DNA of 64,000 nt from Escherichia coli (GTDB taxonomy: Bacteria > Pseudomonadota > Gammaproteobacteria > Enterobacterales > Enterobacteriaceae). The notes beneath the pieces are model-generated. The model ran no database searches. It was not told the DNA's origin and saw only the letters and a list, made by a program, of their open reading frames with translations. Of this stretch, positions 58,318 through 58,854 are shown piece after piece. The stretch lies in NCBI RefSeq assembly GCF_044647545.1, contig NZ_CP172818.1; one strand, 5' to 3'. The position numbers and the translations under genes were made by a program. Each line of letters opens with the position of its first letter. The first letter of the stretch is position 1.

Positions 58318-58854
58318 TTAAATATACTCAAATGTCGCAGTTAAAGAGGCGGTAAATTCACCGATCGTCACATCACGGCCGCTTTTCGCCTGTAGCCAGG
58401 CTCTGAAATTGATATCGTTATTGCCATTGGTTAGCGCAAAGGTCGCCCCATTTGTATTGTTGATGGCAACGGCATTCCGTCGGTTTTTTCCATGCCAATT
58501 CCCACTCCCTGAGCGGTTGATGACGTATCCAGTGCCAGAAAACCGGGTTGTTCGCTGTCTTTATCCCGCGAGCGTGACTTTTACGTTGTATCCCGCCGGC
58601 CCTTTGCAATCTTTCAGCTTAAAGACTACGGGTACACGAGCGGACTGGCCTGCAACGTTCAAATCCTGACGACTGACCGTGGGAAAGCGCACCTCTGCCA
58701 GATATTGGCCATCCACCACCAGCGCACAGGATTTACTTAATAAATTACCGGAGAAATGCAGATTATTATCTGCCGCGAATAACGTGCTACTCATTGCCAA
58801 TATCAGCCCCGCTAACAGGACGTAACCACCGGACTGAATCATTGATTTATTCAT
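58318..58854 (-). pseudogene. yfcP: Fimbrial subunit-like gene interrupted by an in-frame TAA or paired frameshifts
   Basis: 97-codon ORF (signal peptide MNKSMIQSGGYVLLAGLILA) ends at TAA 58561..58563; the same frame reopens and ends with fimbrial C-terminal strand GEFTASLTATFEYI at 58318; the +1 frame is open across the gap (58434..58580). Confidence 0.55.

Follow-up and report, generated by a model that had tools for sequence, protein, structure and literature searches.

Two small deletions break yfcP within a lesion-dense K-12-type block of one Escherichia coli assembly, probably through consensus or assembly error

The Yfc chaperone-usher fimbria of E. coli is encoded in K-12 by the yfcOPQRSUV operon, in which yfcP specifies a 179-aa protein (WP_001043398.1). 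Judged from modelling and sequence similarity, on which its adaptor role rests, this product is a FimF/PapK-like tip adaptor pilin, and AlphaFold modelling of YfcQ:YfcP:YfcV from 2025 presents YfcP as the tip-to-rod adaptor (PMC12122975). The nearest solved homologues of intact YfcP are the tip adaptors FimF of the type 1 pilus (6.9e-10) and PapK of the P pilus (1.2e-7), both aligning over the full length; the likeness is at the family level only, and the NCBIfam FimF model gives 59.9 bits against a cut-off of 200. The closest named families are the Salmonella minor subunits SteF (NF011792) and StfG (NF011816), matching YfcP full length at 149.9 and 146.3 bits, and since their equivalog cut-offs of 264 and 253 bits lie above these scores, YfcP is a relative of these families rather than a member. 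The adhesin gene next to yfcP carries a StfH/YfcO family annotation. The operon is dispensable, and disrupted genes are already known from it, namely the K-12 usher gene yfcU, which has an internal stop, and the yfcP of strain S163-2, which carries an IS1.

We analysed a 64,000-nucleotide stretch of E. coli DNA, hereafter the window, in which yfcP is broken as deposited. The initial annotation had described a single fimbrial subunit gene, yfcP, with a signal-peptide ORF ending at a TAA, a return of the same frame to a canonical fimbrial C-terminus and, across the gap, an open +1 frame resembling a fimbrial core segment, and all of these elements were recovered here. Read from the ATG at 58854, frame 0 follows K-12 from M1 to L95, has ...KVTLAG as its last residues and stops at the TAA at 58563..58561; beyond it the same frame first gives RQRTTRFSGTGYVINRSGSGNWHGKNRRN, about 28 residues with no fimbrial match in translation or Pfam searches, and later AVAINNTNGATFALTNGNNDINF...GEFTASLTATFEYI up to the stop at 58318. 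The +1 frame is open across the gap, reading DKDSEQPGFLALDTSSTAQGVGIGMEKTDGMPLPS... and running through ...DKDSEQPGFLALDTSSTAQGVGIGMEKTDGMPLPSTIQMGRPLR* to a stop at 58433..58431, and its segment DSEQPGFLALDTSSTAQGVGIGMEKTDGM equals residues 100-128 of K-12 YfcP at 29 of 29 positions; because every one of these residues agrees, the match is not due to chance.

Aligning the DNA to K-12 yfcP revealed differences confined to two small clusters (Table 1). In lesion 1 the K-12 sequence ACGGGGGTAGAAG becomes GCGGGA--TAAAG, with the new codons GCG GGA TAA (T96A, G97, stop), such that the TAA is a creation of the lesion itself, while lesion 2 turns the K-12 codon CAG (Q129) into CC, with one base lost net and another changed. 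Together the two deletions sum to -3 and frame 0 is back at V130 (58470), and a three-frame comparison with the fimbrial profile and K-12 yfcP yields the same order of frame 0, +1 and frame 0. We thus regard it as virtually certain that yfcP here is one gene with a compensating frameshift pair made of two deletions. The earlier proposal had been either a nonsense mutation or two nearby indels of opposite sign; the frameshift pair stands, whereas the nonsense option does not, and neither does the opposite sign, both events being deletions (-2 and -1). A simple nonsense mutation, in which a sense codon of an otherwise in-frame gene became TAA, would fit the presence of an in-frame TAA with the true C-terminus later in frame 0, but K-12 yfcP is the longer by 3 nt, its alignment to the window's copy having gaps of 2 and 1 nt, the middle piece read in frame 0 has no Fimbrial match, and the 29 codons past the TAA spell YfcP only in the +1 frame, with all 29 residues matching; we reject it as having next to no probability.

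Table 1. Features of the disrupted yfcP and of the K-12-type block around it
Feature	Coordinates	Strand	Description
yfcP, disrupted as written	58318..58854	minus	537 nt against 540 nt in K-12; from alignment, translations and synteny
N-terminal ORF, 97 aa	58561..58854	minus	Signal peptide, donor-strand extension and both Cys (C43, C83); ends Ala96-Gly97-TAA
Lesion 1	58562..58569	minus	Net -2 plus 2-3 base changes; alignment to K-12
+1-frame stretch, 29 codons	58473..58559	minus	YfcP D100-M128; 29/29 residues identical to K-12
Lesion 2	58471..58472	minus	Net -1 plus one base change; return to frame 0
C-terminal part, V130-I179 and stop codon	58318..58470	minus	Frame 0, identical to K-12; Pfam positions 98-150
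K-12-type block	57422..59673		3' part of yfcR, yfcQ, yfcP and yfcO; 2,252 bp in an ECONIH1-type window
Hybrid yfcR, intact, 162 aa	59335..59823	minus	5' part ECONIH1-type, 3' part K-12-type; WP_400164282.1
yfcQ	58851..59338	minus	-1 frameshift (TT -> T) at 58978; G -> A at 59047
yfcO (adhesin) remnants	57493..58316	minus	Five indels and a five-substitution cluster

Profile searches gave the same division of the gene, with a single Pfam Fimbrial domain split over the three frame pieces. The 97-aa N-terminal ORF covers profile positions 2-65 only, scoring 23.5 bits and thus falling below the 25.6-bit cut-off, and the match of the frame-0 tail piece is limited to its residues 29-79 (profile positions 98-150). 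Only once the three pieces are joined does the window's yfcP pass as a PF00419 Fimbrial domain, the conceptual repair scoring 71.1 bits over profile positions 2-150, compared with 72.4 bits over the same positions for intact K-12 YfcP. Identity as the yfcP orthologue follows from its place between yfcQ and yfcO and from a DNA identity with K-12 of 100% outside the two clusters, and membership in a chaperone-usher operon from the genes for a 250-aa chaperone and an 883-aa usher upstream, on which the K-12 and ECONIH1 annotations agree. With its frame broken relative to intact orthologues, yfcP has the form of a frameshift pseudogene, and the neighbours yfcQ and yfcO are disrupted too. On the opposite (plus) strand an 86-aa ORF at 58409..58669 has no NCBIfam match and is treated as spurious.

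The lesions as written would leave little of the pilin fold. Translation would stop after 97 residues, retaining the signal peptide, the N-terminal donor strand and the Cys pair, and the product would be without the second, C-terminal half of the Ig-like pilin fold. That half contains the final F strand (GEFTASLTATFEYI), which forms the groove for the chaperone and then for the next subunit. The DNA for this strand (penultimate Tyr, ...TATFEYI) is still there at 58318-58470, but it is untranslatable, lying downstream of the TAA and beyond 29 out-of-frame codons. In the chaperone-usher pathway, a pilin without its C-terminal strands has no such groove to be complemented by the chaperone and subsequently by the next subunit. 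We infer that a 97-aa YfcP, because it misses the C-terminal half with the F strand, could be neither chaperoned nor polymerised and would be non-functional and probably degraded; since yfcQ and yfcO are frameshifted as well, no Yfc tip could be built.

Given that the frame is regained after 29 codons and that lesion 1 sits at a G5 run of the K-12 allele, we considered whether the two shifts may be functional, either as programmed recoding through two ribosomal frameshifts or as a phase-variable on/off switch at a repeat tract. Inspection of both yfcP sites revealed no slippery heptamer (X XXY YYZ) and no prfB-like context, recoding would require two separate shifts, and all four orthologous sequences that we aligned or translated are uninterrupted, the lesions being absent from the other copies compared. 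As for phase variation, the only repeat is the G5 run, which is too short for a contingency tract, the lesion is complex rather than a simple change of run length, the run is unchanged in strain SC467, and the intact 35-mer over lesion 1 (G5 included) occurs exactly in all 18 metagenome copies. On this sequence context and these uninterrupted orthologues both ideas are rejected, their probability being practically nil.

Widening the view from yfcP to its surroundings, we found that the gene lies in a block of K-12 type set into DNA of a different lineage. Positions 1-48224 and 54217-57421 of the window match E. coli ECONIH1 (NZ_CP009859.1) at 100.000% identity and positions 59674-64000 at 99.93%, with about 83 complete genomes at least 99% identical to the window over its housekeeping part. 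Between smrB and the yfcR-like gene, ECONIH1 and its relatives carry an AAA ATPase gene, a hypothetical gene and their own yfcO, yfcP and yfcQ, and it is 4.3 kb of this sequence, including part of the yfcR-like gene, that the block replaces. The relatives' yfcO, yfcP and yfcQ match the K-12 versions at only ~55% of aligned columns. The left junction lies in yfcR at 59674-59677, in frame, with 3 shared bp (AAT) preceded by 8 shared bases and one mismatch, while the right junction falls in the final 9 bases of smrB (TTGCCCTGA), 9 bp that are common to both types. Both junctions coincide precisely with the limits of the region in which the two operon types no longer align.

Several observations on the natural diversity of this region arose alongside. 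E. coli possesses two deeply diverged Yfc operon types, ~75% identical over yfcV, yfcU and yfcS (window 59674-63910 compared with positions 1007-5239 of the K-12 locus L002). The AAA family ATPase and the hypothetical gene (positions 3291-5291 of the ECONIH1 locus L003 and 1787-3788 of locus L025), which stand between smrB and the yfcO-like gene and are absent from the window at 57421/57422, could be a small accessory or defence-type island. Strain SC467 and the metagenome loci L020 and L023 appear to be natural recombinants in which the type switches near the 3' end of yfcP.

Evaluating the 2,252 bp of the block against K-12, we found the two identical apart from 12 private events, and indels are part of 9 of these. 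Besides the two lesions of yfcP and the yfcQ changes listed in Table 1, where tblastn splits the yfcQ match between frames -1 and -3 at residues 121/122, the events concentrate in yfcO, whose tblastn match is split between at least two frames; its indels are +2 at 58229-31, -1 at 58077, -1 at 57988, -1 at 57903 and +3 (a CTG duplication) at 57846-8, and its substitutions are the five clustered at 58266-58280 in the signal-peptide region and an A -> G at 58098. The intergenic part of the block adds a +1 at 57448.

Outside the block there are five private events, none of them in positions 1-52152. Two fall 20 bp apart in yfcA (minus, 53016..53824), a conserved gene of the TauE/SafE or TSUP family that is an intact 269 aa in ECONIH1, with ECONIH1 and K-12 agreeing in DNA sequence at the lesion site; these are F27L at 53745 and a -1 in a T6 run at 53765, around codon 20, leaving a longest ORF of 247 aa that starts at Met23 and whose exact product is found on one NCBI contig only. 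The usher gene (60612-63263) has a private P857A at 60695 and is otherwise intact (883 aa), and a 1-bp deletion (CC -> C) lies at 63948, in the intergenic DNA ahead of yfcV, the gene for the major subunit. The fifth event is a 6-bp deletion (CACATT) at 52153, between mnmC and yfcL, at a REP-element polymorphic site. Altogether 12 of the 17 private events fall in a block that makes up 3.5% of the window (binomial p ~2e-14), and the other five all fall within ~5.3 kb of it (p ~9e-5); the density drops from 5.3 events per kb inside the block to 0.52 per kb over its 9.6 kb of flanks (52153 to 64000) and to 0 farther out.

Two sites deserve a separate remark. The deletion at 52153 sits exactly where K-12 has an extra 65-nt REP-like element that ECONIH1 lacks, and it may represent natural variation at a junction or a consensus artefact where the structures differ. 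A synonymous difference of the usher gene from ECONIH1 at 61257 is common to strain WP5-S18-ESBL-08.

Searching for the lesions elsewhere, we used a 671-nt query around yfcP on 5,426 complete RefSeq E. coli genomes, in which the best match was the yfcP of K-12 and about 1,100 others at 98.4% over 671 nt; no genome of the 5,426 beats this value of the intact K-12 allele. A 33-mer over lesion 1 was not matched exactly by any of 100,044 species-representative genomes or by any metagenome contig, while its positive control, the intact 35-mer, matched 18 metagenome contigs. These contigs and strain SC467 make up 19 independent K-12-type copies, and none of the window's 24 variant columns is common to any of the 19; 14 copies are without a gap and none has more than one gap opening, compared with 9 gap openings in the window. 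At the protein level, among ~15 billion proteins, a single NCBI contig (4,499,902 bp) is the only source of each of five exact products: the YfcP fragment of 97 aa, the YfcQ with its frameshift, the hybrid YfcR (WP_400164282.1), the variant usher (WP_400164285.1) and the truncated YfcA. This 4.50-Mb contig is set against chromosomes of 4.99-5.31 Mb in the closest relatives. That the lesions were inherited from a natural donor lineage is accordingly rejected, with no complete genome above 98.4%, 0 of 19 copies sharing variants and the products on one contig.

A K-12 template that had been partly polished towards the ECONIH1-type allele is likewise not supported. Only 4 of 14 substitutions have the ECONIH1 state, and block-specific k-mers are not enriched in the ECONIH1 segment (k=9: 3 found where 4 are expected; k>=10: none).

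What, then, produced the lesions? We hold consensus or assembly error to be the probable source, the likeliest cause being a poor consensus, or a reference-derived or contaminant-derived stretch that may have been stitched into the one deposited assembly; technical candidates would be a strain-specific stretch that was poorly supported or left unpolished, or one taken from a K-12-type reference or contaminant. We favour a technical origin because 12 private events in 2.25 kb stand beside 52 kb with none, a distribution that no uniform mutation process fits, because the block's excess of indels has no counterpart in natural copies, because the block and the lesions are both private and have the same boundaries, because the junctions lack the homology that RecA-dependent exchange needs, and because the conserved housekeeping gene yfcA nearby has a similar private pair of substitution and indel. 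Speaking against it, the rest of the window is flawless, and the assembly is not a generally poor one, as it carries RefSeq WP_ accessions. Indels in homopolymers and short tandem duplications also arise naturally, and several of those seen here, lying in homopolymers or creating short tandem repeats, are like natural slippage. These same features would suit genuine recent decay, in which a strain of the ECONIH1 lineage gained a K-12-type yfcR'-yfcQ-yfcP-yfcO by recombination and then lost the mismatched tip genes to small indels. Such decay would be in keeping with the common degradation of fimbrial operons, of which the yfcU pseudogene of K-12 and the IS1 in the yfcP of S163-2 are natural cases from the Yfc genes themselves, and with a hybrid yfcR that is in frame and intact; two random indels, moreover, sum to a -3-compatible frame by chance about 1 time in 3. 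A real recombinant block is not far-fetched either, given the high polymorphism of the Yfc genes, the discordance between their trees and MLST trees, and the absence of yfcR/Q/P/O from some of the 19 UPEC strains examined (PMC4850163). However, the clustering of private events just described cannot result from a uniform rate, however long the time allowed, the ratio of indels to substitutions is far above that of the 19 natural copies (9 gap openings versus 0 or 1), no intermediate allele appeared in any collection searched, junction identities of only 3 and 9 bp are a poor substrate for RecA-dependent exchange, and the paired lesion of the conserved yfcA has to be accounted for as well. We therefore see genuine decay as possible but rather unlikely.

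Localised hypermutation tied to the recombination event, by error-prone repair synthesis during break-induced homeologous replacement (indel-rich, of the Pol IV/DinB sort), would be dense in the replaced tract and thin out to a halo in the flanks, and the gradient from 5.3 to 0.52 to 0 events per kb, the spectrum rich in -1 deletions and clustered multi-base changes, and the spatial coincidence of a private block with private lesions all agree with it. It is, however, indistinguishable here from poor consensus quality, and to our knowledge no repair-associated mutagenesis comes within orders of magnitude of changing ~1% of bases, leaving it very improbable. Stated as a whole, the version in which block and lesions are real would be an in-frame replacement of the tip genes in a natural isolate through 3- and 9-bp microhomology, with a halo of ~5 kb peppered by error-prone recombination-associated synthesis; we give it a slim chance, and if true, it would represent a natural footprint of break-repair mutagenesis at ~1% density and an unusual case of homeologous replacement with clustered mutagenesis.

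For a minor subunit gene to be frameshifted in a fimbrial operon that is cryptic and often degraded is nothing out of the ordinary, so that the biological weight of the finding is small and its practical use is that of a warning flag on this assembly and its unique RefSeq proteins. Under the technical origin that we favour, a flawed stretch in a single assembly is probably what lies behind the yfcP, yfcQ, yfcO and yfcA "pseudogenes" and behind the hybrid YfcR and usher proteins unique to it, and until there is read support none of these should be counted as fimbrial gene loss or as a new recombinant Yfc type.

Set beside the known systems, the window's yfcP is closest to K-12 yfcP, with which it shares the same DNA outside the two clusters, the same place in the operon and the same yfcQ overlap (ATGA), and from which it differs in being 3 nt shorter, in T96A, in the TAA at codon 98, in 29 codons out of frame and in the destroyed Q129. 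Unlike the tip adaptors FimF and PapK, its C-terminal half cannot be made. Compared with the disrupted genes of the Yfc operon elsewhere, the K-12 yfcU and S163-2 lesions are single events found in many genomes, whereas the window has 12 private events over three adjacent genes; and while yfcU of K-12 is annotated as a pseudogene, the usher of the window is intact at 883 aa.
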